Shown here in pieces: positions 1-56,371 of a DNA stretch of 56,371 nt (positions are counted from its first letter, which is position 1; each line of letters opens with the position of its first letter). The notes beneath the pieces are model-generated. The model was not told the origin of the DNA. It saw only the letters and a list, made by a program, of their open reading frames with translations, and did not search any database. The stretch is from a virus (taxonomy: Duplodnaviria > Caudoviricetes), in the IMG/VR virus record IMGVR_UViG_3300010362_000018, positions 1-56,371 of that record; one strand, 5' to 3'. Both the position numbers and the translations under genes were made by a program.

Positions 1-1
1 C

Positions 2-370
2 ATCCTCCAGGTGGTCCTCTGCGAGTACAAGAAGAACTTCCTGGGCCGTCAGTACCCGGGCCGTACGCATGACACCGAGCTCCGCTACTGGAAGGCGATG
101 GGCGAGTACTGGGGCCACGAGTCGACGATGCTTCAGGCGCGGGCGGAGGTGTTCAACGCGGTCAGCCTGGGCGAGCAGAACGGCTGGTGGGGCGCCCGCA
201 AGGAACTGGAGCGGACGTTGCCGGACTTCCGGTACTACTGGAGCGACCTCCGGTTCAGCTATACCGATACGGATGACATCTCCCACCCCATCACCTGGGA
301 AGAGGCAGGCAAGCCCTGCCCAACGTCAAGCATCGTCGGAGCGGCTCCGGCTGCGCTGGCAGGACCCTGA
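2..370 (+). CDS. 5'-truncated aGPT-pyrophosphorylase / amino acid:DNA transferase-like protein (thymine hypermodification)
   Basis: Open from the window edge; motif VVLCEYKK-x5-YPGRTHD resembles the LCxxK...YxG..D signature of aGPT-Pplase proteins; clusters with a kinase and TET/JBP. Confidence 0.55.
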   Translation: MLQVVLCEYKKNFLGRQYPGRTHDTELRYWKAMGEYWGHESTMLQARAEVFNAVSLGEQNGWWGARKELERTLPDFRYYWSDLRFSYTDTDDISHPITWEEAGKPCPTSSIVGAAPAALAGP

Positions 371-761
371 GTTCCGGGCCAAGATGATCGCCAAGAACAA
401 GAACCCGTCGCACCCGTCCCGCGCCGCCTCTGCGGCACGGATGCGTGAGCGGTGGGCTGACCCGGAGTGGCGCGCCAAGATGTCAGCCGCGCAGCGCAAG
501 CGGTGGGAGGACCCGGAGTTCAGGGCGCGGGCGACCGCTCACCTGCCGGGCAACAATCACCGCGGGAACGCGCCGGTCAAGGGCACGTGCGTCTACTGTG
601 GCAGGCCGGGCACGGAGCGCGACCACGATGTGCCTACTCAGCGCGGCGGGACCAACGATCCGTCGAACATCGTGATCGCGTGCTCGTCGTGCAACGCCTC
701 GAAGGGCAATCTCACGGGCGCCGAGTACCGCGAGCTCCTCCGCCTGAAGGAGCTCCGGTGA
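273..761 (+). CDS. HNH endonuclease with N-terminal WxDPExRxK (NUMOD3-like) repeats
   Basis: CVYCG...DHDVP..RGG....NIVIACSSCNASKG; three W.DPE.RA repeats; ATG 273 chosen (ORF open from 69); overlaps the previous gene. Confidence 0.8.
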   Translation: MTSPTPSPGKRQASPAQRQASSERLRLRWQDPEFRAKMIAKNKNPSHPSRAASAARMRERWADPEWRAKMSAAQRKRWEDPEFRARATAHLPGNNHRGNAPVKGTCVYCGRPGTERDHDVPTQRGGTNDPSNIVIACSSCNASKGNLTGAEYRELLRLKELR

Positions 762-1210
762 TCCTCCGGCCCGTGTACGAGGTGGGCGACGCCCGGCTCT
801 ACCAGGCGGGCTCGAAGCGCCTCGACGGCTACGAGCCGAGTGACGTTGCGGCCGAGTACCGGATCGCGATGGTGCTGAACGTCGCGCCTCACCCGAACCC
901 GAAGATGGCGTTCTACGTGCTGACGTACCGCCACGTCCCGTTCGGGGACAACAGCCAGTTCCGGTCAGCGCTCCCGAACATCGAGCCCGCCGTGGCGGAG
1001 GCGGCAGCGACGCTGACCGCCGGGGGCAACGTCCTCACGCACTGCTACTACGGCGTGAACCGGAGCGGCCTGGTGAACGCGCTGATCATCCGGGACATCG
1101 AGAAGTGCTCCGGCCGTGACGCGCTCGCCCGCCTCAGGGAGCGCCGCCGCGGCGCTTGCGGCGGGAACGATCACTTCGTCGCGTATCTCAACGACCTGGA
1201 GGCCCCATGA
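758..1210 (+). CDS. Dual-specificity/tyrosine phosphatase-fold protein
   Basis: Catalytic HCxxGxxRS motif (HCYYGVNRSG); GTGA coupling with the HNH stop. Confidence 0.8.
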   Translation: MILRPVYEVGDARLYQAGSKRLDGYEPSDVAAEYRIAMVLNVAPHPNPKMAFYVLTYRHVPFGDNSQFRSALPNIEPAVAEAAATLTAGGNVLTHCYYGVNRSGLVNALIIRDIEKCSGRDALARLRERRRGACGGNDHFVAYLNDLEAP

Positions 1211-1929
1211 CCACCGCGGTCCTCGTGGACCTGGACGGCACGCTCCTGCCGGACAACATCTTCCTCCCGCAGGCAGCGGTCCTCACCGAGGCCATCACCG
1301 AGGTGTACGGATTCGACGCCGGGTACGGGCCGGAGCACGTCCCTGAGGCCGTGCAGGTGGACTGGGTCGGGAAGACTGACCGCCGGATCGTGCTGGAGAT
1401 GTGCAAGCGCGCCGGAGTCAGCGACGAGGACGCCGTGCTCAAGCTGCCACAGTGGATCGATGCGTACATGGCCCGGTTCCTGGCGCGCTGCCCGACGCGC
1501 CTGCGCGCTCGGCGCTCGGTGGTCGAGATGATCTGGGCCGCGAAGGCGCTCGGCGCGGACATCCGGCTGGTGACCGGGAACCTGCGGCCGGTGGCGCGGC
1601 TGAAGGTGGAGCGGGCGCTGGTCGGTGAGGCGATCAACCTCCGCCGGTCCGCAACGGGCAGCGAGTGCCTGAGCCGCGAGGAGCTCGTGAGGTGGGCGCT
1701 CGGTACGCTGCCGCCGAGTCACGCGGTGGTGGTCGGGGACACGTGGCGTGACGTTCAGGGCGCGCAGCTGGCGGGCGTGCCGTGCGTGGCGCTCGCGACG
1801 CCCAAGCACGGCGTGGAAGAGCTCCTGGACGCGGGTGCTGACACCGTCGTCCCGGCGGATGACGGAGAGAAGCTGACCGGCGCGGTGGTTGACCTGCTCA
1901 CCGCTTATACTTCGGCGCCCCGAACGTAG
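1207..1929 (+). CDS. HAD-superfamily hydrolase/phosphatase
   Basis: DLDGTL motif I, LVTGN motif II, VVGDTWRDV motif IV; ATGA coupling. Confidence 0.85.
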   Translation: MTTAVLVDLDGTLLPDNIFLPQAAVLTEAITEVYGFDAGYGPEHVPEAVQVDWVGKTDRRIVLEMCKRAGVSDEDAVLKLPQWIDAYMARFLARCPTRLRARRSVVEMIWAAKALGADIRLVTGNLRPVARLKVERALVGEAINLRRSATGSECLSREELVRWALGTLPPSHAVVVGDTWRDVQGAQLAGVPCVALATPKHGVEELLDAGADTVVPADDGEKLTGAVVDLLTAYTSAPRT

Positions 1930-1934
1930 GAGGC
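1906..1934 (+). promoter_or_regulatory. Promoter -10 TATACT + CCCGAAC leader + SD
   Basis: TATACT 1906-1911, CCCGAACGTA 1919-1928, GGAGG; member of a repeated element. Confidence 0.6.
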
Positions 1935-1938
1935 CCGA

Positions 1939-2235
1939 GTGGCGATCGTCAGGATCAAGGCGAACAAGCGATGGTTCCGGCAGGTGCTGATCGTGATGCA
2001 CGACCAGCCGAAGCTGATCCGCGAGGTAGAGCGCGCGATGGAGCGACCCGGGCTGACCGCCAGCCTCACCGCGCCGGAGATGCGTGACCTTGCGGCCCGG
2101 ATGCCCGACGACCCCAACGTTGTGCGCGCCCTGAGCGATCTGGAGGCCGCTGAGGAGAACGATCGCATCCGCAAGGCGGAACTGAACGAGCGGATGGATC
2201 GCTTCCGCTCAGAGGCCCGGTGGGACCGTGACTGA
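1939..2235 (+). CDS. Hypothetical protein
   Basis: GGAGG SD, GTG start, GC-type codon use. Confidence 0.7.
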   Translation: MAIVRIKANKRWFRQVLIVMHDQPKLIREVERAMERPGLTASLTAPEMRDLAARMPDDPNVVRALSDLEAAEENDRIRKAELNERMDRFRSEARWDRD

Positions 2236-2314
2236 CTTCTGGGCCGGGCTGATCTGCGCGCTGTTCGCCGCGACGATCTGCGCGCTGATCCTGCACTGGG
2301 CGGGTGTGCTGTGA
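2228..2314 (+). CDS. Small hydrophobic peptide (28 aa)
   Basis: MTDFWAGLICALFAATICALILHWAGVL fills the gap and overlaps both neighbours. Confidence 0.5.
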   Translation: MTDFWAGLICALFAATICALILHWAGVL

Positions 2315-2868
2315 CCGCCCGGACGCGCCCGTGGTACCGGGCTGAGAAGCCGTTGCTCGTCTACCTGATCGGCGTGCCCGGCGCGGGCAAGTCAGCCGTC
2401 ATGGCCGAACTCGTTCGCGGGCGCCGCCGCCGGGTGTTCACGCAGCCGTTCGCTCACACCACCTACGAGGACGGGCTGGTGCAGCTGGGCCGGGAGCGCG
2501 TGGGCCGGTCAGGCACCGACACGCTCGCGATGAACGTTCAGCCGCGCGTCCTCGCGATGCTGGAGACTCAGACGTGGAGCCGCGTCCTCGGGGAGGGTGA
2601 CCGGCTCGCGAACCGCGCGTTCTTCGACGGCGCTCGGCTGCGCGGCTACACGCTCGACGTGATCCTGCTCGACTGCCCGCCGGAAGTTGCGGCGGAGCGC
2701 CGCGCCGCAAGAGGCTCCGAGCAGGACGCGCGCTGGCTGAAGTCACGCGCCTCGAAGATCGAGAACCTGAGGCCCCTGGCTACCGCCGTTCTGGATGCTA
2801 CGTTGCCGGTGGAGACGCTGGTAGCGACGCTGTCGGCGCACCCGGTGATCACGAGAGAGGAGTCCTGA
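2311..2868 (+). CDS. P-loop nucleotide kinase of DNA-modification loci
   Basis: Walker A GVPGAGKS, SGTDTL, EGDRL, RxxRGS lid; coupled to the TET/JBP gene. Confidence 0.75.
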   Translation: MTARTRPWYRAEKPLLVYLIGVPGAGKSAVMAELVRGRRRRVFTQPFAHTTYEDGLVQLGRERVGRSGTDTLAMNVQPRVLAMLETQTWSRVLGEGDRLANRAFFDGARLRGYTLDVILLDCPPEVAAERRAARGSEQDARWLKSRASKIENLRPLATAVLDATLPVETLVATLSAHPVITREES

Positions 2869-3773
2869 TGCTGACGGAACTGCGCGTGCGTTCACGGATC
2901 AGCCCGGAGGCGATGGACGCCCGGAAGCAGAAGATCCTCACCGAGCGTGACCACGACGTGCGCCTGACCGGCCCGACGCGCGTGATGGGGCCGTCAGGGA
3001 GGCCGCTGGCCGTCTACCTGCCCGGCGCGGTCCGGGAGCAGATGGACGCGGCGTACGGGATCCTCCACACGATCAGGGGGACGAGCGAGAACCGCGGGTA
3101 CGCCTCAGGCACCGGCAACAAGTTCACGCAGAACAACGTGCAGCGCGCCAAGCCTGTCATGTCCTCGATCCTCGGCTCGTTCGAGGCGTCGGGCTTCTAC
3201 AAGTTCTGTCGCCTCACCTCCTGGACCGCAAGAGAGATGGAGACTCGCTGGCCTCAGCTGCTGCCGCTGTTCCAGGCGATCGCCGCCGAGTTCGAGCGCT
3301 ACGTCCCGGACCGCTTCGCCGCGCAGCGTCGGTACGCCGATCAGACCGCCGCCGACTGGATCATCGACGGCACGCCGTTCACGACGATCACGCTGAACAA
3401 CACGTACAGCACCGGGGTCCACCAGGACAAGGGTGATCTGGACGAGGGGTTCAGCTGCCTCGCTGTCGCCCGGCGCGGGGCCTACGTGGGCGGGACGCTG
3501 ACGTTCCCCGAGTACCGGATCGCTGCGGACATGCAGGACGGCGACCTGATCCTGATGGACGCTCACGCCTGGCACGGGAACACGCTGATGCACTGTCGCT
3601 GCGAGGACGGCCGCAAGCTGCTCAACACCGGCCCGTGCGAGTCGTGTGGCGCTGAGCGGATCAGCGTCGTCTGTTACTACCGGACGAAGATGGCGACCTG
3701 CGGGACGGCTGACGCTGAGGCGTCCCGGGCGACCGACTGGGCGGAGCGCAACTACGGCGTGAGGAGCGGCTGA
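2868..3773 (+). CDS. TET/JBP-family 2OG-Fe(II) dioxygenase
   Basis: FTTITLN, HxD (HQD), HGNT and RISVVCYYR motifs. Confidence 0.8.
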   Translation: MLTELRVRSRISPEAMDARKQKILTERDHDVRLTGPTRVMGPSGRPLAVYLPGAVREQMDAAYGILHTIRGTSENRGYASGTGNKFTQNNVQRAKPVMSSILGSFEASGFYKFCRLTSWTAREMETRWPQLLPLFQAIAAEFERYVPDRFAAQRRYADQTAADWIIDGTPFTTITLNNTYSTGVHQDKGDLDEGFSCLAVARRGAYVGGTLTFPEYRIAADMQDGDLILMDAHAWHGNTLMHCRCEDGRKLLNTGPCESCGAERISVVCYYRTKMATCGTADAEASRATDWAERNYGVRSG

Positions 3774-3949
3774 TGGAGTACAAGGACACGCTCCCCTACC
3801 AGGAGCGGCAAGAGGCTCTGGAGGCCCGGGGGGACCTCTCAGGAGAGGCGCTGACCGAGCGCTTGAGCCGCGGGGAGCTCGCCGCCGAACAGGCCATCCT
3901 GGACCGCGAACGACGCGCGCAACTCCGCCGGGCCTGGGCCTCCGAGTAG
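3773..3949 (+). CDS. Hypothetical protein (58 aa)
   Basis: TGATG coupling with the TET/JBP gene. Confidence 0.55.
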   Translation: MEYKDTLPYQERQEALEARGDLSGEALTERLSRGELAAEQAILDRERRAQLRRAWASE

Positions 3950-4032
3950 CTCGGGCTCAGCCGCGCCGCAAGTGACCGGCCGTGCCGGGCGGCTGACGCG
4001 CGCACCCGAGGCCCACCGACGAAAGATAAAGA

Positions 4033-4095
4033 TTCGCTAGGGGGGGTTGACATTACCGAGCAACCGGTTATACTGTGTCTTGTAACCCGAACGTA
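4033..4095 (+). promoter_or_regulatory. Strong sigma-70-type promoter with TTCGCTAG7 upstream tract and AACCCGAACGTA leader
   Basis: TTGACA 4047-4052, 16-nt spacer, TATACT 4069-4074, CCCGAAC 4086-4092. Confidence 0.85.
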
Positions 4096-4123
4096 GCCCT
4101 CTGAACCAGCCCAGGAGATTCAA

Positions 4124-5206
4124 ATGCCCGCCACCCTCACCACCCCGCTCAACTCCCGCGAGTACGTCGTCAACGCCGAGCGGCGCTCCACCAGCCGCAC
4201 CGTGACCGCCGTGATCGCCGAGCGGCCGATCTGGGCCGAGCGCGCCTCCAGCTTCCGGGTCCTCTGCGACACCCACGGCACCACCCGCCGCGCGGCTAAC
4301 CGGACCGAGGCCTTCGACATGGCCCGCTACCCGGCCAGCTTCTGCGACCAGTGCACCGGCCCCACCGCCCGCCGCCAGCGCGTCAGCCGCGCCGCCCGCC
4401 GAGTCACGGGCACGGTGGCCGCGGTCGCCGGTAACCGCAAGTTCGGCGTCGAGATCGAGTTCATCGGCGCGGCCATGAGCCGAGTCGCTCAGGAGCTCCG
4501 CAACCGCGGGCTCGGGTGTGACCTGCCCGGCTACAGCCACCGAGTCCTGAGCACCTGGAAGGTCGTCAGCGACGCCTCCCTCCCCTCCGGCGGCGGCGAG
4601 CTCGTCAGCCCCCCGCTCCGCGGCGCCGCGGGCCTTGAGCAGCTGCGCCTGGCCTGCGAGGCGCTTGAGGCCGCTGGCGCCCGCGTCAGCCGCTCTTGCG
4701 GCCTCCACGTCCACCACGACGTGAACGGGCTGAACGCTCCGGCGCTGGGTCGCCTCTTCCGCAACTGGATGGATACGCAGAGCGCTACCGACCAGCTGGT
4801 CAGCGCCTCCCGCCGCGGCACCCGCTGGGCCGCGCCGCTCACCCACCGCGACGTCGAGCGCGTCGAGTCGCTCCGCTCCACGGCGCGTGACGCGGTCCGT
4901 AGCCACTTCGCCTACGTGGACCGCTACCGCTCCCTGAACGTTGCGGCGTACCCGCGCTACGGCACCGTCGAGGTTCGGCAGCACCAGGGCACGATCAGCT
5001 TCACGAAGATCGCTGCCTGGGTCGCCTACGGCCAGGCTCAGATCAACGCCGCGGTCGCCGGGGTCACGCTGGCTAGCGTCACCGCTCACGACCTGCTCGA
5101 CACGCTGGCGGCTCACGGGCTGAGCGCTGACCAGGTGACCTACCTGAAGCAGCGCGCCGGTCACTTCGGCTTCGCCGCTCCCGCCCCCGCGCCGGTCGCG
5201 GCGTAA
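4124..5206 (+). CDS. Putative amidoligase (COOH-NH2 ligase, Amidoligase_2-like)
   Basis: FGVEIEF, WKVVSDASL, ELVSPPL, CGLHVH, RYRSLN, TVEVRQHQGT. Confidence 0.85.
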   Translation: MPATLTTPLNSREYVVNAERRSTSRTVTAVIAERPIWAERASSFRVLCDTHGTTRRAANRTEAFDMARYPASFCDQCTGPTARRQRVSRAARRVTGTVAAVAGNRKFGVEIEFIGAAMSRVAQELRNRGLGCDLPGYSHRVLSTWKVVSDASLPSGGGELVSPPLRGAAGLEQLRLACEALEAAGARVSRSCGLHVHHDVNGLNAPALGRLFRNWMDTQSATDQLVSASRRGTRWAAPLTHRDVERVESLRSTARDAVRSHFAYVDRYRSLNVAAYPRYGTVEVRQHQGTISFTKIAAWVAYGQAQINAAVAGVTLASVTAHDLLDTLAAHGLSADQVTYLKQRAGHFGFAAPAPAPVAA

Positions 5207-5216
5207 GGGGGCGGCG

Positions 5217-5489
5217 GTGCTGAACCTGATCTTCCCTGACGGCTCCATCGTCACCGGGCGCACCTTCGCTGAACTGGAGGAGGCGCTCAGGGCAACGCAG
5301 TGGAGGCCGTACAAGACGCGCCGGGAGTTCCGCCGGGACTTGCGGCGCCGGGCCGCTAACTGGTCCGGCCGGGCTCAGAAGCCCGTCATCTACCAGACCC
5401 CTAAGGGGTTCATCTACCACCTGGTCAACAGCGGGATGTGCATGCTGGAGACCACCTCAGTCACCTCGATCCATCAGGAGCAGTCATGA
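5217..5489 (+). CDS. Hypothetical protein
   Basis: ORF between the amidoligase and the C26 hydrolase. Confidence 0.65.
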   Translation: MLNLIFPDGSIVTGRTFAELEEALRATQWRPYKTRREFRRDLRRRAANWSGRAQKPVIYQTPKGFIYHLVNSGMCMLETTSVTSIHQEQS

Positions 5490-6472
5490 CCAAGAAGCCC
5501 CGCAAGACCAACCCCGCCCCCGCTACCGCCGACCGGCCCGTTCAGCGCCCCCACGTGCTGATCCTGGAGGGCCTCAGCGGCGCTACGGCCGTCGTCCGTC
5601 ACGCGGGCGGCACCGTCACCACCGTGAGCCCTCAGAACGTGAGCGCGGTCGAGAAGGCGCTGGCCCAGCCGTTCGACGCGCTGCTGCTCACGGGCGGCGG
5701 CGACGTGGACCCGCGGCGCTACGGCGAGAAGCCTCACGCTCGGACGTACGGCGTCAACGAGACGCGCGACCGTACCGAGTGGAGCGCCCTGGAGCGCGCT
5801 GAGGCGCTGGGCGTCCCGGTCCTGGGCATCTGCCGAGGCAGCCAGCTGATGGCCGTCCACAACGGCGGGCGCCTGAAGCAGCACATCAACGGGCACCGCG
5901 GCACCAGCCACCTCGTCTGGGCTCAGCCCGGGACGCACTTCAAGCGCATCATCGGCAACGCGATGGGCTGCGTGAGCCTCCACCACCAGATCGTCTTGCG
6001 GCACGGCGCGGGCTTCCGGGTGGCGGCGCGTAACCGCGAGGGCATGATCGAGGCGATCGAGTCCCGTGACGGGCGCTGCCTCGGGGTCCAGTTCCACCCG
6101 GAGATGGACTACTGGAGCAACCCGGGCTCACAGCGGATCATCCGCTGGCCGGTCGAGGCCGCGGCGGCGTACGCGGGCGTCCAGGCGCCGCCCGCGCGGC
6201 CGGTCAAGGCGCGGCGCGCCCCGGCCAAGGCTGAGGGCAAGCACCGCCCCGCCGGTCAGCGCACCAAGCCCCGCAAGCGGGCGCCGGTCAAGGTCAGCTG
6301 GCTCTGCCCGGTGTGCGCCATCAGGTTCGACAAGGAGGAGGACCGTAACGACCACATCTGGTACCTCCACGAGCAGCAGCCGCTGTTCGACAAGGTGGGC
6401 AAGCCGCCCAAGTACAACGCCGCGGGCCTTGAGCCGCCTGCGGACCACCCCGACTGGGAGCCCGCCGCGTAG
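5486..6472 (+). CDS. Class I glutamine amidotransferase / peptidase C26 (gamma-glutamyl hydrolase, PuuD-like) with C-terminal C2H2 finger
   Basis: LTGGGDVDP, LGICRGSQ (nucleophile Cys), GVQFHPE; CPVC...H...H tail. Confidence 0.85.
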   Translation: MTKKPRKTNPAPATADRPVQRPHVLILEGLSGATAVVRHAGGTVTTVSPQNVSAVEKALAQPFDALLLTGGGDVDPRRYGEKPHARTYGVNETRDRTEWSALERAEALGVPVLGICRGSQLMAVHNGGRLKQHINGHRGTSHLVWAQPGTHFKRIIGNAMGCVSLHHQIVLRHGAGFRVAARNREGMIEAIESRDGRCLGVQFHPEMDYWSNPGSQRIIRWPVEAAAAYAGVQAPPARPVKARRAPAKAEGKHRPAGQRTKPRKRAPVKVSWLCPVCAIRFDKEEDRNDHIWYLHEQQPLFDKVGKPPKYNAAGLEPPADHPDWEPAA

Positions 6473-6481
6473 GCGGGCTCC
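6457..6481 (+). terminator. GC hairpin over the stop codon
   Basis: GGAGCCCGCC/GGCGGGCTCC 10-bp stem; no U-tract. Confidence 0.45.
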
Positions 6482-6508
6482 AGCCCTTCCACCAGGAGAT
6501 CACTACCC

Positions 6509-7558
6509 ATGCCGCCTTACAGCCGCTACGAGGACGCGCTGATCGCCCAGCAGCGCCTCTACGAATGGACCATCAGCGAGCCGGGCCTCAGGTTCATGCT
6601 GGGCTTCTTCACCAGCCAGAACGAGATCCATACGCCGGAGGCTCAGCGTGACCCGGTCGCGCTCGCCCGGATCCAGGTCGCGATGTTGCGGGAAGCCGAG
6701 CCGGTGTACGTCAGCCCGGACGCCTGCGATCTGGTCGACCACGCCCGTGAGACGTGGAAGCCTGAGCCCGTCCTGGGCAGCGACGCGTTCACGCCGTACG
6801 GGTTCGTGCTGTTCCCGCGGCCGATCATGCTCGACGACATGCCCGTCACCGAGGAGAACCCGATGCGCGCCCCGGCGCCGCCCGGCTCGCTGAACGGCTA
6901 CATCCCCGTCCGCGCGATGGCGTGGCTGAGCATCATCAGCGAGGACGCGCAGATCGGGACGTTCTGGGTCAGCTTCTACACGGCGGTCGAGGACGAGTTC
7001 CGCCTTGCGGACGAGCTCGGCGTCCCTGACCGCTGGACCAACCCGCCACCGGGCCACCCGGCGTACACGCGCGATCACGTCCGCCGCAACTTCCCGATGT
7101 CGATGGTCCACATGTGGCAGTGGTCGTGGGGCAACGACGGCAACCACGAGTACGGCGACTGGGATGACCCTGACCGCTACGACGTGATGCCCCAGGACAG
7201 CTTCGAGCAGATGAGGGAGCGCGCCCGGCAGCAGTGCGGACTGATCCAGACGTTCTGGCGCATCGCCAGCCAGTTCGTCCCCGCCCGGCACCGGCTCCCG
7301 CGTCAGCTGCGCCGCGACGCCGCGCGGCACGGGATCGCCGCGAAGGAGGTCACCGTGATCACCTTGCGGCGGGAGCGTGAGCGCCCCGACTACGACCCGG
7401 AGCCGACCGGGAGGGAGTACCACGTCAGCTTCCTCGTCCGCGGGTACTGGGCTACCCGGCACACCCGCAACGGGCCGCGGCAGGTCTGGGTCCGCCCCCA
7501 CCTCAAGGGGCAGGGGCCGTTCCAGGAGACGGCGCGTGGATGGGAATTCACACGGTGA
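6509..7558 (+). CDS. Hypothetical phage protein with C-terminal VRGxW...WVRPHxKG motif
   Basis: 349-aa ORF, CAGGAG SD. Confidence 0.75.
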   Translation: MPPYSRYEDALIAQQRLYEWTISEPGLRFMLGFFTSQNEIHTPEAQRDPVALARIQVAMLREAEPVYVSPDACDLVDHARETWKPEPVLGSDAFTPYGFVLFPRPIMLDDMPVTEENPMRAPAPPGSLNGYIPVRAMAWLSIISEDAQIGTFWVSFYTAVEDEFRLADELGVPDRWTNPPPGHPAYTRDHVRRNFPMSMVHMWQWSWGNDGNHEYGDWDDPDRYDVMPQDSFEQMRERARQQCGLIQTFWRIASQFVPARHRLPRQLRRDAARHGIAAKEVTVITLRRERERPDYDPEPTGREYHVSFLVRGYWATRHTRNGPRQVWVRPHLKGQGPFQETARGWEFTR

Positions 7559-7585
7559 GGGCGCCCGCGCCGACCCCGGCGTCCC

Positions 7586-7613
7586 CGGTCCGTAGGGAGC
7601 TCTCCTGGAGTCC
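7586..7613 (+). repeat. Degenerate copy of the dispersed CGGTCCGTAGGGA...CTGGAGTCC element
   Basis: Matches 29038-29065 at both ends. Confidence 0.6.
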
Positions 7614-7695
7614 TGAGGACCGGGACGCGTGGGTATCCGCTGGCGAGCCGCAAGGCTTGCGGACCGCCTCGCCGCTGAGGAACGCTGAGAAGAAA

Positions 7696-7755
7696 TTCGC
7701 TAGGGGGGGTTGACGAAACGCGAATCGTTGTTATACTTGTAGGCGTAGCCCGAAC
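7696..7755 (+). promoter_or_regulatory. Strong promoter, same class as 4033
   Basis: TTCGCTAG7, TTGACG 7710-7715, TATACT 7732-7737, CCCGAAC 7749-7755. Confidence 0.85.
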
Positions 7756-7779
7756 GAACCCCGACTCAGGAGACCTCTC

Positions 7780-8103
7780 ATGATCAACGAAATCCTTCTC
7801 ACCGGCACCGCCTTCGGCCGTACGATCAGCTTCATCGCCAAGGACTACGGTCACGGCGCGATGAGCGTTGACGCGCTGTTCCTCGCCCGGACCCCGAAGG
7901 GCTCCAAGACCTACGCGGTGAACGGCGACTTCTACCCGGTCGAGAACGACCGTCGCCGCGGCGACACGATCTTCACCACGGAGGACGGGCGCGAGTACCG
8001 CCTCGCCTTCCAGACCGTCATTCGGAACCGTCACGGGCGCCTCTGCGGGCTGGTCGAGCAGAACGCCGAGACGACGGTCCTTCCCTACTTCCAGGCCGCG
8101 TAG
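7780..8103 (+). CDS. Hypothetical early protein
   Basis: SD CAGGAG, first gene after a promoter. Confidence 0.7.
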   Translation: MINEILLTGTAFGRTISFIAKDYGHGAMSVDALFLARTPKGSKTYAVNGDFYPVENDRRRGDTIFTTEDGREYRLAFQTVIRNRHGRLCGLVEQNAETTVLPYFQAA

Positions 8104-8137
8104 AGCGGCCTGGGCAACCCATCAGGAGATCACCACC

Positions 8138-8374
8138 ATGAACGTTCAGCTTCACGAGAAGACCGGCCGCTACTACGACGCGGACGGGCTGCACCCCGCC
8201 GACGCCCGCTACTACTGGACCGCGTTCTGCGGCGGTTGCGGGGAGGAGATCGACGTGGTCGCCACGTACGAGGGCGGCGCGCGGGCCGTCGTCAAGGCCG
8301 CGATCGCCGCGGACTACGTGCCCATGACCATTGACCGCCTTGAGCGCCGCGAGCTCGGCGTCATCTACTTCTAG
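8138..8374 (+). CDS. Hypothetical protein
   Basis: SD CAGGAG, CxxC. Confidence 0.7.
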   Translation: MNVQLHEKTGRYYDADGLHPADARYYWTAFCGGCGEEIDVVATYEGGARAVVKAAIAADYVPMTIDRLERRELGVIYF

Positions 8375-8376
8375 CC

Positions 8377-8604
8377 ATGAGCGCGATCTTCATCCCCCGC
8401 GGCGCCCTCCTGACGGACGAGTCAGGCGGGCGCATGATCCTCAGGGTCGCGGGCTACGGCGAGGTGACCGGCCTCTCCGCAACCACCCTGAGCGTCCGCT
8501 TCGAGGACGGGCAGGACTACACCGTGAAGCGCTCCGAGCTCCCCGTCAAGACCCGCGGCTGGCACGTCGGCCTCGGGACCCCCAACCATCAGGAGTCAAG
8601 GTGA
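8377..8604 (+). CDS. Hypothetical protein
   Basis: Tightly packed ORF. Confidence 0.65.
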   Translation: MSAIFIPRGALLTDESGGRMILRVAGYGEVTGLSATTLSVRFEDGQDYTVKRSELPVKTRGWHVGLGTPNHQESR

Positions 8605-9041
8605 ACCCTCAGTACAACATCGCCGTCTACGGCACCCTCATGTCCGGCCACTTCAGGAGCGAGGCGGCGCTCAGCCCGTACGCCGAGCTCCAGGGGCCGT
8701 GCGTCATCCGCGGCGACCTGTACGCCGTGGGCTTCGGCGCCTTCCCCGCGCTCCGCAAGGGCACGGGCGAGGTGAAGGGCGAGCTCTGGCGCGCCCTCTC
8801 CCTGGAGCACCTCACCGAGATGCTGAAGATGACCGACAGCATCGAGGGCTACCGCGCCAATGACGAGGGCCGGTCGATGTACCTGCGGCGGATGGTGCAG
8901 CTGGTCGAGCCCGACGTGACCGCCTGGACCTACGTCTGGAACAGCGACGGGATGCGCCTCCACCCGATCCCCTCCGGGGACTGGCGCGAGTACGCCGCGC
9001 GTGAGCGCGACGCCTGGCGCGGCACGTGGAGCGCGGCATGA
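8601..9041 (+). CDS. Gamma-glutamylcyclotransferase (AIG2/GGCT-like)
   Basis: N-terminal AVYGTL, FPAL, VKGELW, D.IEGY, YLRR, AWTYVW, I.SGDW. Confidence 0.85.
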   Translation: MNPQYNIAVYGTLMSGHFRSEAALSPYAELQGPCVIRGDLYAVGFGAFPALRKGTGEVKGELWRALSLEHLTEMLKMTDSIEGYRANDEGRSMYLRRMVQLVEPDVTAWTYVWNSDGMRLHPIPSGDWREYAARERDAWRGTWSAA

Positions 9042-9250
9042 CCGGCTACGAGATCCTGGAGGCGGTGCGCGCTGAGCGCGCCGCCTTGCGGGCGCGGGAC
9101 CAGCTGCTCGCCCGCGTCGAACACGCTCTCAGGGGCGTCCCGGAGGTCCGTACCGTCCCCGAGCGTGAAGTCCGGGGGCACGTGGTCAAGGCGCACACCC
9201 GGCGCTCCAGGCGGTCCCAGAACGCTCCGAGCGCGGAGGCCTCGCCGTGA
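9038..9250 (+). CDS. Hypothetical protein
   Basis: ATGA coupling; VRGHxVKAH motif. Confidence 0.6.
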   Translation: MTGYEILEAVRAERAALRARDQLLARVEHALRGVPEVRTVPEREVRGHVVKAHTRRSRRSQNAPSAEASP

Positions 9251-9570
9251 GCCACACCTACCACGCGGCGCTTGCGGGCTACGACGCCCGCAACGTCTTC
9301 CACGACGGCTGTCCTGAGTGCGAGCGCCGGGCGGCTGACTTCGGCGCCGCCATCGCGAACGCTGACGCCAACAACTTCCGGGCGCTGTGGATGACCGCGG
9401 CGCAGCTGTTCTGGTTCGAGCGCGCGGGCTTCCCGCCGATCGACCCGGACCGCCGGGTCAGCGAGTGCGATCACGAGGTGGCCCGGCAGCTGTACACGGT
9501 GATGGTCGTCCTCGAACGTCACTTCGGGCTGCACCCGCGGGGCATGTACGAGCTCGCGGGTAGGCTCTAG
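9247..9570 (+). CDS. Hypothetical protein
   Basis: GTGA coupling, CxxC. Confidence 0.65.
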   Translation: MSHTYHAALAGYDARNVFHDGCPECERRAADFGAAIANADANNFRALWMTAAQLFWFERAGFPPIDPDRRVSECDHEVARQLYTVMVVLERHFGLHPRGMYELAGRL

Positions 9571-9749
9571 GACCTGGGTCTGACCGCGTGCCCGCCCCGC
9601 AAGCTACCACCTCCCGCCGGGCGATAAGGGCTGCCGGAGAGCGGCGCCCTCGGTCCCTAAAGGCTGCGAATCTCCTGATGGAGCGCGGCGTCGGGGCTAC
9701 GGTCCCGGCGCCGTGCATCCGCTTCCACGTTCCTCCAGAGGAGCGCCTG

Positions 9750-9899
9750 ATGCCGCGTGTCCGCAAGCAGTTCGTGGGGCTCAGTGACGGCTCCACCGAC
9801 ATCCGGGGCAAGCGCCCGGGCACCGACATGCCCAAGGCGAAGCAGCGCCAGAAGCGCAAGCCGCGGCGCAAGCCGCCGAAGCCGCCGGGCCGTGCCTGA
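9750..9899 (+). CDS. Small basic protein
   Basis: GAGGAG SD; K/R/P-rich. Confidence 0.5.
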   Translation: MPRVRKQFVGLSDGSTDIRGKRPGTDMPKAKQRQKRKPRRKPPKPPGRA

Positions 9900-10062
9900 G
9901 CGCCGGGCGTACATCTGCCTACGCTGCGACCCGGTACACCGCGTGTTCGTCGCTGCGGGAGAGCCCGTCCCGAAGTGCCCTCAGCACGGCCGGATGACGC
10001 GGCAGACCAACGTGCCGTACGTCCGCCCGCCCGCGCCGCCGCCGCGCCGCCGTAGGCGCTGA
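9892..10062 (+). CDS. Small zinc-ribbon protein
   Basis: CLRC...CPQH; R-rich tail. Confidence 0.55.
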   Translation: MPERRAYICLRCDPVHRVFVAAGEPVPKCPQHGRMTRQTNVPYVRPPAPPPRRRRR

Positions 10063-10069
10063 GAAAGAA

Positions 10070-10129
10070 TTCGCTAGGGGGGGTTGACGAATCGTCCGGG
10101 GCGGTTATACTTCCTGTTGTAACCCGAAC
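10070..10129 (+). promoter_or_regulatory. Strong promoter, same class as 4033
   Basis: TTCGCTAG7, TTGACG 10084-10089, TATACT 10106-10111, CCCGAAC 10123-10129. Confidence 0.85.
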
Positions 10130-10154
10130 CGCCCCACCAAGCCAGGAGATTCAA

Positions 10155-11276
10155 ATGCCCACCACGTCAGAGCCCACCGCCCGTCAGCTTCAGTTCTTCA
10201 ACTCGCTGCTCGCCGAGCGGAACATGCCGACCATCGAGCACTTCGCGCCGAACACGACCCGCCGCGAGGCCAGCCAGGCCATCGACCAGCTGATGGCGAT
10301 GCCGCGCCCGGCGCGTACCGCCGCCGCCGTTGACCGCAACGGCGAGGGCACCCAGGTGGAAACGCCCAGCGCCGATAGCCGCGCGGGCCGGATGCTCCTT
10401 GCGGGCGGCATCGAGGCCACCGTCACCTTCACCGACGGGCGCCACGCGACCGTGAGCGTCAGGACCCGCGGGCGCCGCGGCAACGGCTGGGCGAACATGA
10501 GCCCCGGCGAGGAGGGCGCCCGGACCAACATCAAGATCCTCGGCGCCAACGTCGGCTGGATCAACGTCATCGACGGGCGCTGGGTGCTGACCCTCCGGAC
10601 CCGTCGCGAGGAGTACCGCCGCGCGATCCTCGCGGTGTTCGAGTACGCCGCGACCGGCGTGACCGCTGACGGCTCACGAGTGCAGGAGGCCTCCCGTTGC
10701 GGGCGCTGCTTCCGCGAGCTCACCGACCCGGTCAGCATCGACCGCGGCATCGGCCCGGAGTGCTTCGGCCGTGACACCGGCAGCCAGCACATCGCGGCTG
10801 ACCGCGACCGCAACGGCACCGCCGTGACCCGCGAGCCGCGCACCGTGACCGGCGTGCTCCGCGAGGCGGGCACCAACGAGGCCGAGGTGGCCGCCGAGGC
10901 CGCCCGCCGCCGCGCGCTGAGCAACGGCGCCCACCCCGACCAGGCTGACGGCGACGCGTTCGGCGCGTACGAGGCGGTCCAGGAGCGTCAGGCGTACGAG
11001 CGGGAGATGCGTGAGGACGCGCTGTACCGCGAGGAGGCGGAGAACCTCCGTGAGAGCGCCCTCCAGGCGGCGGTCAAGTCGCTGACCGCCCCGGCGCCCG
11101 CCCCGGCGCCCGCCCCGGCGCCCGCCGCGGCCCCGGCGCCGCGCCCGGTCAGGCGCCCCACGGACGCTCAGATCAAGCGCGCCCGGGAGATCATCGAGGA
11201 GGCGCTGGACCTGGCTGACATCCCCTTCCGTGACACCGTCCTGGCCCTGAGCGTGTTCGACGCGCTCAAGCGCTAG
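10155..11276 (+). CDS. DUF6011-domain protein with (PA)n linker
   Basis: CGRCFRELTDPVSIDRGIGPEC; GCCCCGGCGCCC tandem repeat near 11088-11140. Confidence 0.75.
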   Translation: MPTTSEPTARQLQFFNSLLAERNMPTIEHFAPNTTRREASQAIDQLMAMPRPARTAAAVDRNGEGTQVETPSADSRAGRMLLAGGIEATVTFTDGRHATVSVRTRGRRGNGWANMSPGEEGARTNIKILGANVGWINVIDGRWVLTLRTRREEYRRAILAVFEYAATGVTADGSRVQEASRCGRCFRELTDPVSIDRGIGPECFGRDTGSQHIAADRDRNGTAVTREPRTVTGVLREAGTNEAEVAAEAARRRALSNGAHPDQADGDAFGAYEAVQERQAYEREMREDALYREEAENLRESALQAAVKSLTAPAPAPAPAPAPAAAPAPRPVRRPTDAQIKRAREIIEEALDLADIPFRDTVLALSVFDALKR

Positions 11277-14110: not shown

Positions 14111-14159
14111 GATCGCGGGCGCCGGGCGGGCTGTCATGGCTCGCCCGGCGCGCACCGTC

Positions 14160-14648
14160 ATGTACCGGCCACGGCTCTCAGTGATCATCGCGTCGAGCGG
14201 GCGCCCGACCCTCCAGCGGACGCTTGACTCCGTGAACCCGCAACTGCGTGAGGGCGACGAGTGCCTCGTCAGCATGAACCTCGACTGCCCGTGGGGTCAC
14301 GCCGCCCGCAACCAGCTGATGCGCGCCGCCCGCGGTGACGCGCTCATGTTCATCGACGATGACGACTGGTACACGCCCGGCGCGCTGGAGCTCGTCCGCG
14401 CCCGGATCAGACTCCACGCCTGGAAGGTCCATCTCTTCCGGATGCGCTACCGCGATGGGCGCCTCCTGTGGGCTGACCCTGAAGTCAGGGACGGCAACGT
14501 CAGCACCCAGATGGTCGTCACGCCGCCTCCGCTGAGGGCTCAGTGGGGCGATCGCTACCAAGGGGACCTGGACTTCATCCGCGGGCTCCAGGCGGAGTTT
14601 GGGGAGCCCTGCTGGCACACGCCGGTCATTGCGGAGATCGGCAAGTGA
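14160..14648 (+). CDS. Glycosyltransferase family 2 (GT-A)
   Basis: SVII...RPTLQRTLDSV, ARN, ARGDALMFIDDDD; alternative start 14136 lies inside a hairpin. Confidence 0.8.
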   Translation: MYRPRLSVIIASSGRPTLQRTLDSVNPQLREGDECLVSMNLDCPWGHAARNQLMRAARGDALMFIDDDDWYTPGALELVRARIRLHAWKVHLFRMRYRDGRLLWADPEVRDGNVSTQMVVTPPPLRAQWGDRYQGDLDFIRGLQAEFGEPCWHTPVIAEIGK

Positions 14649-15700
14649 ACGTCCTCGCGCTCAGGGCCGACTCGTACGGCTGTGGGCACTACCGGATCAG
14701 CCTGCCCGCCCGGCACGCGGGCGTCCCGGTCCAGGTGGAGGATCGCATCCCGCTGAACATGCGCCGGGTGGGCGCTACGAACCAGCGGATCCTGATCAGC
14801 GTTCCGGTCGGCGCTGACGTGGTGGTCATCCAGCGCCCGGTGAGTCACCACATGCCAGCGATCATCTCGATGCTCCAGCAGCAAGGCGTCGCGGTCGTCG
14901 TGGAGCTCGATGACGACCTCTGCGCGCTGGACCCGCGTCACGGCGCCTACGCCGCGCTCCATCCAGCGAACACGCCTCACGCCAACTGGCAGCACCTCAG
15001 AACCTGTTGTGGAGCCGCCGACCTGGTCACCGTGACCACTGAGCCGCTGGCCCGCAAGTACGCGGCTCACGGGCGCGTTGCCGTCCTCCCGAACTGCGTC
15101 CCTCAGGCGTTGCTCAAGCTGAAGAGCCCGCTGGACGCCGACTTCGGCTGGACGGGCTCACTCGCCAGTCACCCGCGCGACCTGGGCGTGCTGGGCACCG
15201 CCGTTCGGGATCTGGTCAACGATGACGGGTTCAGCTTCCGCGTGGTCGGTGACGGCAAAGGCGTCGCGAAGCAGCTGGGCCTGGGCGGCGTCGATGACAC
15301 CGGCTGGCTGGATCTGGACCTGTACTACCGGGCGGCGGCTCAACTGCGCGTCGGGCTCGTGCCGCTTCAGGACACCGCGTTCAACGAGGCCAAGTCGGCG
15401 CTGAAGGGCATCGAGTACGCCGCGCTCGGGATCCCCTTTGTCGCGAGCGACACTCCGGAGTACGTGGACCTGCAGAGCCGCGGCGCCGGGTTCCTTGCGG
15501 ACCGGCCGCGCCGCTGGCGTTCGATGGTGCGCTGGCTACTCCAGAACGTCTCTCACCGCGAAGAACTCGTCCAGGCGGGCCGCGACACGGTGGCTGCGTA
15601 CTTCACCATCGAGGATCAGGGCTGGCGCTGGGCGGAGGCCTGGGAGCGGGCGATCGCCTACCGCAAAGAGCTCGGTAGCATGCCGCGCGTCGTAGCCTGA
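14645..15700 (+). CDS. Glycosyltransferase, GT-B (GT4-like)
   Basis: GCGHYRI, ELDDDL, FGWTGS, FNEAKSALKGIEYAALGIPFVAS. Confidence 0.8.
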   Translation: MNVLALRADSYGCGHYRISLPARHAGVPVQVEDRIPLNMRRVGATNQRILISVPVGADVVVIQRPVSHHMPAIISMLQQQGVAVVVELDDDLCALDPRHGAYAALHPANTPHANWQHLRTCCGAADLVTVTTEPLARKYAAHGRVAVLPNCVPQALLKLKSPLDADFGWTGSLASHPRDLGVLGTAVRDLVNDDGFSFRVVGDGKGVAKQLGLGGVDDTGWLDLDLYYRAAAQLRVGLVPLQDTAFNEAKSALKGIEYAALGIPFVASDTPEYVDLQSRGAGFLADRPRRWRSMVRWLLQNVSHREELVQAGRDTVAAYFTIEDQGWRWAEAWERAIAYRKELGSMPRVVA

Positions 15701-21319: not shown

Positions 21320-21737
21320 CACCTGTCAGTGCGGTTGCGGTGAGGCTGTCAGGAGCGGCAGCCGGTTCCGCCGCGGTCACAACAAGCGCAACCAGCCGCT
21401 CCAGTCGAAGTGCAGCGTTGTCGGCTGTCCGCACCCGCGACTCCGCTACCAGGCCGTCTGTCGTGAGCATCACAACCTGAAGATCAACACGTACCGGCGG
21501 AAGCGGATGGGACTCTCACCGGCCGACTACCAGGCCATGCTCGATGAGCAGGGCGGCGTGTGCGCCATCTGCGGTGACCCGCCGGGCGTGCAGGCGCTCG
21601 CAGTGGATCACGACCACGCGACGGGCTACGTCCGCGGGCTGCTCTGCACCAACTGCAACCACCTCCTCGGGAAGGCGAAGGACAACCGGACCGTCCTGGA
21701 GGCCGCGATCGCCTACCTGGCGAGGGGGAGGTGCTGA
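21309..21737 (+). CDS. Endonuclease VII-family free-standing nuclease
   Basis: QGGVCAIC...VDHDHATGYVRGLLCTNCN; N-terminal CQCGCG. Confidence 0.85.
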   Translation: MSSSTCQCGCGEAVRSGSRFRRGHNKRNQPLQSKCSVVGCPHPRLRYQAVCREHHNLKINTYRRKRMGLSPADYQAMLDEQGGVCAICGDPPGVQALAVDHDHATGYVRGLLCTNCNHLLGKAKDNRTVLEAAIAYLARGRC

Positions 21738-42927: not shown

Positions 42928-42933
42928 TGGTGC

Positions 42934-42990
42934 GTTAGGGGGGGTTGACTTTCTCGTGAGGCCGGTTATACTGTGTCTTGCATGACGAAC
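42934..42990 (+). promoter_or_regulatory. Strong promoter, same class as 4033
   Basis: TAG7, TTGACT 42945-42950, TATACT 42967-42972; GGTTATACTGTGTCTTG identical to the 4033 promoter; variant leader GACGAAC. Confidence 0.85.
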
Positions 42991-43017
42991 TCAGCCCCCA
43001 ATCATCAGGAGCCCAGC

Positions 43018-45089: not shown

Positions 45090-45731
45090 ATGCCCCGCCG
45101 CCGCTCCGACCCGTACGCTGCGGCGGTGATCTGTCTCGTCAGCGGCGCGCAGCCCATCCTCCGCCGGTACGCGCACACCGGGCGTTACGGCCAGCTGATC
45201 GTGCCGCGCTCAGGGGACATGCCGGAGCTCGGGCTGCCGTGGGCGTGTGACAACGGCGGCTACCACGGCTTCGAGATCGAGCCGTACGCGCGGATGCTCG
45301 GACGCGCCCGCAACTACTCGGGGTGCTGGTGGGTGACCGCGCCGGACGTGTACTGTGACCCGGCGGCGACTGACACGCTGTTCCACGAGTGGGAGGGCGC
45401 GCTGCACGAGCTCGGCTTCCCGGTAGCGCTGGTGGCGCAGGACGGGCTGGCTGAGGGCGACGTGCCGTGGGACCGGCTGGACTGCCTGTTCATGGGCGGC
45501 ACGCTCAACTGGAAGCTGGGCGCTGAGGCGCGGGCGCTGATCCGGGCGGCTCAGGCGCGCGGCAAGCGGACGCACGCGGGCCGCGCCGGGACCATCCGGC
45601 GGATGCGCTACTTCGGGTCGCTGGGCGTGGACAGCTGCGACTCGGCGATCTTCAGCCGTCACGCCGGGCCTGCGTTCCAGACGTTCACGCCGCTCCTGAC
45701 TGACCGGCAACTCGGACTGGAGATCGAATGA
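45090..45731 (+). CDS. TGT/DpdA-like base-exchange protein
   Basis: WACDNGGY, APDV, VAQDG, FMGG, H.GR, DS.DS match the TGT-barrel pattern; coupled to VUT. Confidence 0.6.
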   Translation: MPRRRSDPYAAAVICLVSGAQPILRRYAHTGRYGQLIVPRSGDMPELGLPWACDNGGYHGFEIEPYARMLGRARNYSGCWWVTAPDVYCDPAATDTLFHEWEGALHELGFPVALVAQDGLAEGDVPWDRLDCLFMGGTLNWKLGAEARALIRAAQARGKRTHAGRAGTIRRMRYFGSLGVDSCDSAIFSRHAGPAFQTFTPLLTDRQLGLEIE

Positions 45732-56196: not shown

Positions 56197-56371
56197 CGTT
56201 CTACGGGACGTGCGACTACTGCTTCGATCCGGTGAACGGGAAGCCCGGGACCGATGATGGCCCGGCGTTCCCCGTGACCGGCTGGGAGATCCTCCGGGAG
56301 GAGGGCGGCGCCAACCAGATCCACGGTCGTGAACGGATCGCGGGCGGCGTCCGGCACGTCAAGTGCCTGCC
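56193..56371 (+). CDS. 3'-truncated hypothetical protein
   Basis: GTGA coupling, CDYC; runs off the window. Confidence 0.5.
   Translation, partial: MTFYGTCDYCFDPVNGKPGTDDGPAFPVTGWEILREEGGANQIHGRERIAGGVRHVKCL

Follow-up and report, generated by a model that had tools for sequence, protein, structure and literature searches.

Why would a phage gene cluster that appears to remodel thymine after replication carry two phosphatase genes? The question is raised by the first 4 kb of IMG/VR virus record IMGVR_UViG_3300010362_000018. There, a sequence-only reading had recognized an aGPT-Pplase/AADT-like fragment, a DSP phosphatase, a HAD phosphatase, a P-loop kinase and a TET/JBP dioxygenase, and had proposed that thymine is oxidized in DNA to 5-hydroxymethyluracil (5hmU), phosphorylated and then substituted to give an adduct, with both phosphatases taking part. 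The window is the entire record (56,371 bp, GC 69%, classed linear). We consider it probable (about 0.72), judging from gene families and their arrangement, that an uncultured tailed phage of high GC content has here the core operon of a pathway that hypermodifies thymidine after replication. Within this operon, comparison with relatives strongly supports the DSP as an obligate partner of one AADT clade and as a pathway enzyme, which would act around the AADT step. The route through TET, kinase and AADT is itself already in print; what goes beyond the literature that we searched is the obligate AADT-DSP pairing.

A candidate operon for thymidine hypermodification

All five genes named by the sequence-only reading were present where it had placed them, by Pfam matches or, for the fragment at 2-370, through longer homologues. 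To these we add an HNH endonuclease, ORF98, a micro-ORF and ORF58; gene calling by third-position GC (GC3) gave about 90 open reading frames (ORFs) in the window, nearly all on the plus strand. The earlier reading had also advised recovering the genes upstream of the window. Metagenome contig L011 (4,584 bp), reached via P0018, a protein 100% identical to ORF 2-370 over the overlap, supplied the N-terminus of the AADT and a ParB-like gene. The last 123 nt of L011 equal window positions 1-123 exactly, and its first 123 nt equal positions 56249-56371 exactly, so that window and contig close into a circle of ~60.7 kb (56,371 + 4,584 - 246 = 60,709 bp). Thus, the phage genome is probably a circle or a circularly permuted molecule of this size. 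L011 carries RusA, an excisionase/HTH-like gene, several small ORFs, the gene for a 262-amino-acid (aa) ParB_N protein and the AADT N-terminus. With it joined, the order of the core operon is ParB-like, AADT, HNH, DSP, HAD, ORF98, P-loop kinase, Tet_JBP and ORF58, as follows.

L011 3004-3792: ParB-like protein, 262 aa, directly upstream of the AADT (ParB_N 26.8 bits, cut-off 26.3)
2..370, plus strand: C-terminal 122 aa of the AADT (N-terminal 282 aa on L011 3737-4582)
273..761, plus strand: HNH endonuclease, probable span, alternative start 384 (PF01844 41.2 bits)
758..1210, plus strand: DSP phosphatase (DSPc PF00782 43.0 bits, cut-off 33.5)
1207..1929, plus strand: HAD hydrolase (PF00702 40.0 bits, cut-off 26.4; PF13242 32.7 bits)
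1939..2235, plus strand: ORF98, 98 aa (GC3 0.87)
2228-2314: hydrophobic micro-ORF of 28 codons (VTDFWAGLICALFAATICALILHWAGVL) in the gap from ORF98 to the kinase, overlapping both neighbours at its start and stop
2311..2868, plus strand: P-loop kinase (Ploopntkinase3 PF18751 72.1 bits; Walker A GVPGAGKS)
2868..3773, plus strand: Tet_JBP dioxygenase (PF12851 70.4 bits, cut-off 34.9; phrog_24024 E 1e-48)
3773..3949, plus strand: ORF58, 58 aa, ends the operon; its start overlaps the TET stop
4035..4099, plus strand: probable phage promoter repeat (CGCTAGGGGGGGTTGACA-16 nt-TATACT), opening a new transcription unit after the core operon
56249..56371, plus strand: end overlap, identical to the first 123 nt of L011

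Positions 1-3949 are the tail of one operon, since start and stop codons overlap, no promoter-like site lies within 1-4000 and a phage promoter follows. The overlaps occur at four junctions, HNH/DSP (GTGA), DSP/HAD (ATGA), kinase/TET and TET/ORF58 (both TGATG), which makes the earlier description of the cluster as translationally coupled a fair one. The promoter is a 65-nt repeat, CGCTAGGGGGGGTTGAC...TATACT, in which the -35 and -10 boxes come close to consensus, with a G7 tract upstream. It occurs four times in the window (4035-4099, 7698-7762, 10072-10136 and 42933-42997), and these copies are probably phage-specific promoters; positions 1-10200 hold three promoter-like sites against 0.5 expected. 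We looked for the repeat on L011 and found none there, which suggests that the modification operon closes a unit of ~22 kb starting at 42933. ORF98 had no match in Pfam, PHROG or NCBIfam and ORF58 none in Pfam or PHROG, and neither had a homologue in any relative locus that we fetched. The micro-ORF may encode a small membrane peptide or be a chance ORF.

PF18724, which Pfam names amino acid:DNA transferase (AADT), was formerly called aGPT-Pplase2. ORF 2-370 alone gave no Pfam match; the fragment covers a part of the protein beyond the Pfam model. Of 414 candidates, 18 longer proteins matched it at E<=0.001 with 56-100% identity, each carrying a precomputed PF18724 annotation, and Pfam ADDT was above its cut-off in the 4/4 longer homologues scanned. 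For PF18724, full-length homologues that share 56-66% identity with the fragment reach 37.6-47.5 bits, and the L011 portion of the protein reaches 35.6 bits (cut-off 26.2). The assignment of the fragment to this family is upheld by both its homologues and its own N-terminus. C239, Y250, P251, G252 and D256 are invariant in 25 AADTs (alignment A5) and agree, by eye, with LCEY...YPGRTHD in the fragment. The only solved chain named as an AADT, 25qc_A, matches the AADT profile weakly (E 0.007).

In the dioxygenase, H185, D187, H233, H236, R264 and C278 are invariant in 10 relatives. We take H185, D187 and H233/H236 to be the Fe(II) ligands of the HxD...H type and R264 to be the arginine that binds 2-oxoglutarate. 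Twenty-three residues follow C278. The available text of PMC13229309 (O'Toole et al., PNAS 2026) gives the ParB-dependent subclass a C-terminal extension after the last cysteine that both subclasses conserve, numbered C280 in 5mYOX176; going by position, C278 may correspond to it. A profile search of PDB sequences with the dioxygenase returned 0 matches. 

The claimed absence of a cytosine methylase and of a dUMP hydroxymethylase also stood: no match to DNA_methylase (PF00145) or Thymidylat_synt (PF00303) was found in six frames of the window, with the same searches positive in 9/14 and 10/14 control genomes, respectively. Neither family is among the Pfam matches of the 90 window ORFs or the 9 L011 ORFs. 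Nor is there a DNA polymerase among the Pfam matches of the window ORFs, whose replication genes are primase/helicase and recombination nucleases only. Thus, oxidation in DNA of thymine made by the host is the sole visible route to 5hmU.

We therefore read these genes as follows. As no polymerase, dUMP hydroxymethylase or C5-methylase is encoded, phage DNA would be made by the host polymerase, and the dioxygenase, probably helped by the ParB-like protein, would hydroxylate its thymine to 5hmU. The PF18751 kinase would convert 5hmU to 5-phosphomethyl-dU, and the AADT would displace the phosphate with a nucleophile. The DSP would act directly around this AADT step, the HAD would most likely supply or trim a small-molecule donor, and an amidoligase, a glutamine amidotransferase (GATase) and a gamma-glutamyl cyclotransferase (GGACT) encoded downstream may extend or unmask the adduct. 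The order of reactions first proposed, from thymine through 5hmU and phospho-5hmU to an adduct, thus finds support in the gene families, in their context and in the available text of PMC8989533 and PMC13229309, as a pathway type already published. Its product is possibly a new base.

Searches of viral contigs for relatives gave 9 loci with the dioxygenase, 2 more with AADT alignment A1 and 18 with a DSP alignment; single-protein searches of the same kind with the DSP, the HAD or P0018 confirmed no locus. Pfam was run on 82/103, 40/51, 78/82 and 72/92 of their called ORFs, those far from the cluster or very short being dropped, and all six-frame ORFs were also screened with local hidden Markov models (HMMs) built from these sequences. 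A module of ParB, AADT, PF18751 kinase and Tet_JBP recurs in L003, L004, L005, L012, L013, L015, L020, L022, L024, L025/26 and L028; L020 is a minimal five-gene cluster, ParB-TET-AADT-DSP-kinase, without a donor-making enzyme. The ParB HMM was positive in 20/22 TET-bearing locus entries, six of these 20 having gone into building it, and both misses are cut by contig ends. The ParB-like gene of L011 is 31% identical (E 1e-21) to the one within the L012 cluster. By Pfam, a PF18751 kinase adjoins AADT/DSP/TET in L003, L004, L005, L012, L013, L015, L020, L022, L024 and L025; in L026, L027 and L028 a kinase of this type was placed near them by the local kinase HMM only.

The pairing of DSP with AADT

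The DSP profile, from a five-sequence alignment, led through 53 pattern matches to 18 viral-contig loci, which include three contigs found earlier and three near-duplicate pairs. All of them (18/18) have an AADT gene upstream in the same orientation, directly adjacent in 10 and with one gene between in 8; this gene encodes an HNH, an FkbM-type methyltransferase, a TET-associated glycosyltransferase or a small ORF. The two domains also occur in one protein. A profile of 25 AADTs, searched against 1.84 billion representative proteins, gave 883 matches at E<=0.001 and 243 at E<=1e-30, and among the best 150 AADT representatives (50%-identity) the local HMM identified 13 fusions of 477-637 aa with the AADT N-terminal and the DSP C-terminal. 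Pfam DSPc was confirmed in 5/6 fusions scanned and was not detected in P0101 at E<=0.001. As a separate observation, another representative protein, P0131 (761 aa), has two tandem AADT domains (24-343 and 435-746).

In a maximum-likelihood tree of 19 AADTs, a branch with support 100/100 separates the 17 that are linked to a DSP from those of L004 and Gordonia phage MakoManhole, the only two DSP-less rows of a tree whose root is arbitrary. Loci of the TET type and of the thymidylate-synthase type are interleaved within the DSP-linked group. Tet_JBP is missing from 7/18 DSP loci. Six of the seven were scanned with Pfam (L016, L017, L018, L021, L029 and L031; L030 is a near-duplicate of L031), and all six have 5-hydroxymethyldeoxyuridine (5-hmdU) DNA kinase domains (PF18748 and/or PF18723), with thymidylate-synthase homologues in L017, L021 and L029 and family A polymerases fused to uracil-DNA glycosylase in L016 and L018. 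The AADT-DSP pairing is thus independent of the 5hmU source, be it Tet_JBP or of the thymidylate-synthase type. Of the proposal that both phosphatases belong to the pathway, the part on the DSP is strongly supported by the 18/18 loci and the 13 fusions, and the part on the HAD only weakly. We also considered whether the AADT C-terminal region is specific to the DSP-linked clade; this was rejected, as its invariant residues are also found in the DSP-less AADT of L004 (alignment A1).

The DSP itself is probably an active enzyme, as far as its residues and model indicate: C96, G99, N101 and R102 of the CxxGxNR P-loop are invariant in 17 homologues, and the AlphaFold2 model (pLDDT 94.6) has Tk-PTP, DUSP7 and DUSP28 as its top Foldseek matches, with probability 1.00 and TM 0.66-0.75 against Tk-PTP and DUSP7/28/5/10. 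An asparagine in the P-loop (GxNR) is typical of cysteine phosphatases of the RNA 5'-triphosphatase type. An assignment of the DSP to this type found no support: a profile search of the PDB was led by archaeal and bacterial PTPs and DUSP10, with none of that type among the 60 matches listed, and Foldseek placed generic DSPs ahead of the baculovirus RNA 5'-phosphatase (17th) and DUSP11 (18th).

No cultured phage in the collection that we searched carries the DSP-linked AADT clade. There, tblastn with the AADT fragment and megablast with window positions 1-8000 gave no match, and tblastn with the L018 DSP returned eight records, all of Mycobacterium phages and with E about 1e-3, and none from Salmonella or Pseudomonas phages. 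For P0001, a full-length homologue 65% identical to the AADT fragment of the window, the best cultured-phage match reaches 24-27% identity and has no DSP beside it. AADT alignment A1, searched in one genome per prokaryote species, gave no locus, and hence neither a prophage copy nor a host assignment.

At the AADT|DSP junction of the window lies the HNH gene, which overlaps the AADT 3' end in another frame and carries repeated WxDPE[FW]RAKM motifs. L015 has a related HNH at this junction (5499-5942; 49% identity, E 9e-42). The similarity begins at nt 345, upstream of the ATG at 384, and the only in-frame ATG/GTG/TTG starts further upstream are at 273 and 69. Two otherwise different phages thus have related HNHs at one AADT|DSP junction, both overlapping the AADT 3' end. 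The gene is probably a mobile homing-type insertion that targets this junction, not a pathway enzyme.

Weighing the pathway and the phosphatase step

Several points weigh against our reading of the operon. Every enzymatic step in this phage is deduced, its enzymes and those of close relatives being known from genes alone. The kinase is the weakest link of the mechanism: its matches are to PF18751 and generic P-loop families, not to the 5-hmdU DNA kinase families PF18748 HMUDK_HMUD1 and PF18723 HMUDK_hel; it has no pairwise similarity to the HMUDK_HMUD1 kinase of L018 (E 5.1), and may still work like the 5-hmdU DNA kinases (5-HMUDK). The dioxygenase is likened to the ParB-dependent subclass by its gene neighbourhood, not by a position on the clade C1/C2 tree, and the available text of PMC13229309 reports that some clade C1 enzymes without ParB showed no activity and that many ParB-dependent members give <5% 5hmU. 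The fold search with the DSP returns generic DSPs only, archaeal PTPs and many DUSPs being equally alike, and so gives no substrate hint. The circle depends on two 123-nt overlaps with a single contig, and CheckV puts the completeness of the record at 65%. The HAD has an orthologue in one relative only, within the L012 cluster (36% identity, E 2e-26), and the HAD beside the L017 AADT is unrelated to it beyond motif I. Finally, the candidate tailoring genes stand behind the separate promoter at 4035-4099 and are interrupted by a gene of another kind:

4124..5206, plus strand: Amidoligase_2 (COOH-NH2 ligase), possible tailoring enzyme (PF12224 108 bits)
5486..6472, plus strand: class-I glutamine amidotransferase/Peptidase_C26 (gamma-glutamyl hydrolase type), possible tailoring enzyme (PF07722 146 bits)
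6509-7558: ORF349, 349 aa, AcrVA2-like, between the GATase and the GGACT (no Pfam match in the local copy; ESM Atlas AcrVA2-like (PF26125) clusters 0.97-0.98)
8601..9041, plus strand: gamma-glutamyl cyclotransferase, GGACT/AIG2-like (PF06094 67.4 bits; phrog_2520)

ORF349 is possibly an anti-defence gene. Neither it nor the amidoligase, the GATase or the GGACT has a homologue in any fetched relative locus. The GGACT may work with the amidoligase and the GATase, and we infer a link of the three to the pathway because such genes co-occur with AADT and 5mYOX genes in print.

This distribution is what one would expect if the HAD and the three downstream genes were unrelated auxiliary genes that lie near the pathway by chance, an explanation to which we give somewhat less than an even chance. 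It accounts for the single HAD orthologue among 16 other distinct AADT-DSP loci, as well as for the separate promoter and the AcrVA2-like gene among the downstream genes. It does less well with the HAD gene itself, which is translationally coupled to the DSP gene by the ATGA overlap and lies within the cluster in L012 too; in addition, the available text of PMC13229309 and PMC8989533 has HAD, GATase and amidoligase among the genes found together with 5mYOX or AADT genes. The HAD has the motif I DLDGT (the DxDGT nucleophile) in a sequence that starts MTTAVLVDLDGTLL and resembles subfamily IA, and its sub-threshold NCBIfam matches to phosphoglycolate phosphatase and phosphonatase-like models are weak, with no equivalog reaching its cut-off. 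From these features, it is likely a small-molecule phosphatase.

What, then, would the DSP do? We see three possible roles, each of which makes it a pathway enzyme. The role that we rank first, and hold tentatively, is that it removes a phosphate still present on the AADT product, the donor having been phosphorylated. We rank it first because fusions of the AADT-then-DSP kind usually join consecutive steps and an enzyme that destroys the substrate of the AADT would be an odd partner for it. Candidate donors are a phospho-amino acid or, in relatives with a myo-inositol-1-phosphate synthase, an inositol phosphate; phosphorylated donors are suggested by the synthase genes beside the pair in L013 (6172-9492) and L018 (3070-6435). 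L021 (5001-9318) has a GFO/IDH/MocA oxidoreductase, a DegT-type aminotransferase and a methyltransferase beside its AADT-DSP pair, and the presence of such inositol and aminocyclitol enzymes suggests cyclitol-type adducts on thymine in these relatives. An FkbM-family methyltransferase gene stands next to the AADT gene, or between it and the DSP gene, in L013 (7261-7995), L022 (5207-5854), L025 (5085-5741) and L029 (5245-5898).

Extended to the whole clade, the same idea becomes bolder and, in our view, doubtful: AADT-DSP would mark a separate and widespread branch in which a phosphorylated nucleophile is installed and the DSP unmasks it on DNA, giving an undescribed family of bases. The donor would be a phospho-amino acid in this phage and inositol or aminocyclitol phosphates in relatives that have the synthase or a dehydrogenase and aminotransferase, and amidoligase, GATase and GGACT would elaborate the base further in this phage.

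We think it rather unlikely that the DSP instead serves as an eraser or proofreader, returning unused 5-phosphomethyl-dU, a reactive and doubly charged intermediate, to 5hmU and so keeping it out of the packaged DNA, with an adduct that itself never carries a phosphate. Such a substrate would be common to every locus, and this would fit the presence of the DSP whatever the accessory genes, 5hmU source or kinase family, including minimal clusters such as L020 without a donor-making enzyme. The shallow active site of DSPs also suits a phosphomonoester on a macromolecule. However, an eraser would draw on the very substrate that the AADT needs and enter a futile cycle with the kinase, and fusing a competitor to the AADT, as in the 13 representative clusters, is less expected than fusing consecutive steps. 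Nor is an eraser generally needed, because AADT clusters without a DSP exist (L004 and Gordonia phage MakoManhole).

It seems less likely still that both phosphatases act on free small molecules only, releasing the nucleophile for the AADT (phosphoserine, for example, would yield serine, and inositol-1-phosphate would yield inositol). The typical substrates of HAD-IA phosphatases are small molecules, and the weak matches of the window HAD agree with this; the product of the synthase encoded beside AADT-DSP in L013 and L018 is phosphorylated, and an AADT-DSP fusion would suit delivery of a donor to the AADT. DSP-fold enzymes, in contrast, mostly act on macromolecule-bound phosphates; the DSP is kept in L020, where no donor-synthesis gene is found, and the window, L012 and L017 have a HAD besides the DSP, which argues for two different jobs.

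Most improbable of all is that the dioxygenase acts on 5-methylcytosine (5mC) in a TET-like cytosine pathway: phage 5mYOX clades A/B do oxidize 5mC, and 5mYOX97 and 5mYOX176 support 5mC oxidation in vitro (available text of PMC13229309), but no C5-methyltransferase was found in six window frames or on L011, the neighbours are a thymidine-pathway AADT and a P-loop kinase, and elsewhere this AADT-DSP pair is accompanied by thymidylate-synthase homologues and 5-hmdU DNA kinases.

Elsewhere in the window, an endonuclease VII gene with a Cys-rich N-terminal region (21309-21737) is inserted between the terminase large subunit and portal genes, and two glycosyltransferase genes of the GT2 and GT1_4 types (14136-15700) are distant from the modification operon. 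At 45090-46282, a phrog_15826 protein is followed by a Vut_1/queuosine-precursor-transporter-like membrane protein (TIGR00697 41.5 bits, below cut-off); the pair might, going by these family resemblances, point to a second DNA modification of the 7-deazaguanine type.

Place among known systems and implications

The route that we propose for the window has close published counterparts. According to the available text of PMC8989533 (Lee et al., NAR 2021/2022), metavirome contigs without a dUMP hydroxymethylase have TET_JBP beside 5-HMUDK and aGPT-Pplase2 (Fig. 2 sequences 22-25); thymine is proposed to become 5hmU in situ, and amidoligases and glutamine amidotransferases co-occur with 5-HMUDK and aGPT-Pplase2. 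The window shares their logic, in which TET_JBP supplies 5hmU in situ for a kinase and a transferase. The differences are the DSP, which that text does not place there, and the kinase, PF18751 in the window and of the HMUDK families in theirs.

The available text of PMC13229309 shows experimentally that phage 5mYOX enzymes oxidize thymine after replication. It describes a ParB-dependent 5mYOX subclass as "consistently linked" with GATases, P-loop kinases and AADTs, and has HAD among the co-occurring domains, named only in the Fig. 9 legend. Like the neighbourhoods of ParB-dependent clade C1 enzymes, the window has a Tet_JBP of ~300 aa, a short ParB-like gene, a P-loop kinase, an AADT and a GATase, and a neighbouring C5-methyltransferase is absent in both. 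A DSP as fixed partner of the AADT is found on the window side only, a phosphatase being unmentioned in the main text of that paper. A count over main texts found no use of the word phosphatase in PMC13229309 or PMC13458397 and a single one, about methods, in PMC8989533; likewise, full-text literature searches returned no paper tying a phosphatase to the aGPT-Pplase or 5-hydroxymethyluracil hypermodification pathway. Both results cover papers without their supplementary datasets, which may list PF00782.

Among cultured phages of high-GC Actinobacteria, MakoManhole (genes 1-5) and Tonitrus have a ParB-like gene, a Tet/JBP-like oxidoreductase, an aGPT-Pplase2 and a P-loop kinase beside the terminase; for Rhodococcus phage Tonitrus, the available text of PMC11955845 lists parB-like, tet-like JBP, aGPT-Pplase2 and 5-hmU DNA kinase genes, an order that MakoManhole shares. 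Unlike the window, these cassettes are without DSP and HAD. The MakoManhole dioxygenase is 25% identical to that of the window, and its AADT, only 24-27% identical to P0001, falls outside the DSP-linked clade.

More distant are Salmonella phage ViI and Pseudomonas phage M6 (Lee 2018/2021), where a 5-HMUDK and an AADT-family enzyme work in a phosphorylate-then-substitute sequence at the 5-hydroxymethyl group, as proposed for the window. Unlike in the window, 5hmdU is incorporated there before replication via a dUMP hydroxymethylase, with later tailoring by pyridoxal-phosphate (PLP) or radical-SAM enzymes. We know of no phosphatase partner described for either system. Base J, made by the kinetoplastid JBP1/2 and a glucosyltransferase, likewise begins with a Tet_JBP enzyme that hydroxylates thymine in DNA, the hydroxyl then being decorated, but it is eukaryotic and is glycosylated directly without kinase, AADT or phosphatase. 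Two relatives, L002 and L006, which combine TET with a TET-associated glycosyltransferase, are closer to the base J system than the window is.

Thymidine hypermodifications shield phage DNA against restriction, and they provide enzymes for the chemistry of labelling and sequencing DNA. The scheme in print, in which 5hmU arises by oxidation or incorporation, is phosphorylated and has its phosphate substituted, contains no phosphatase. A DSP locked genetically to one large AADT clade therefore points to a chemical step beyond this scheme, either the use of a phosphorylated donor or proofreading on DNA. The AADT-DSP enzymes could be placed in the E. coli and in vitro assays that already exist for this pathway, and a phosphatase paired with, or fused to, the enzyme that attaches the adduct hints at an undescribed DNA base.

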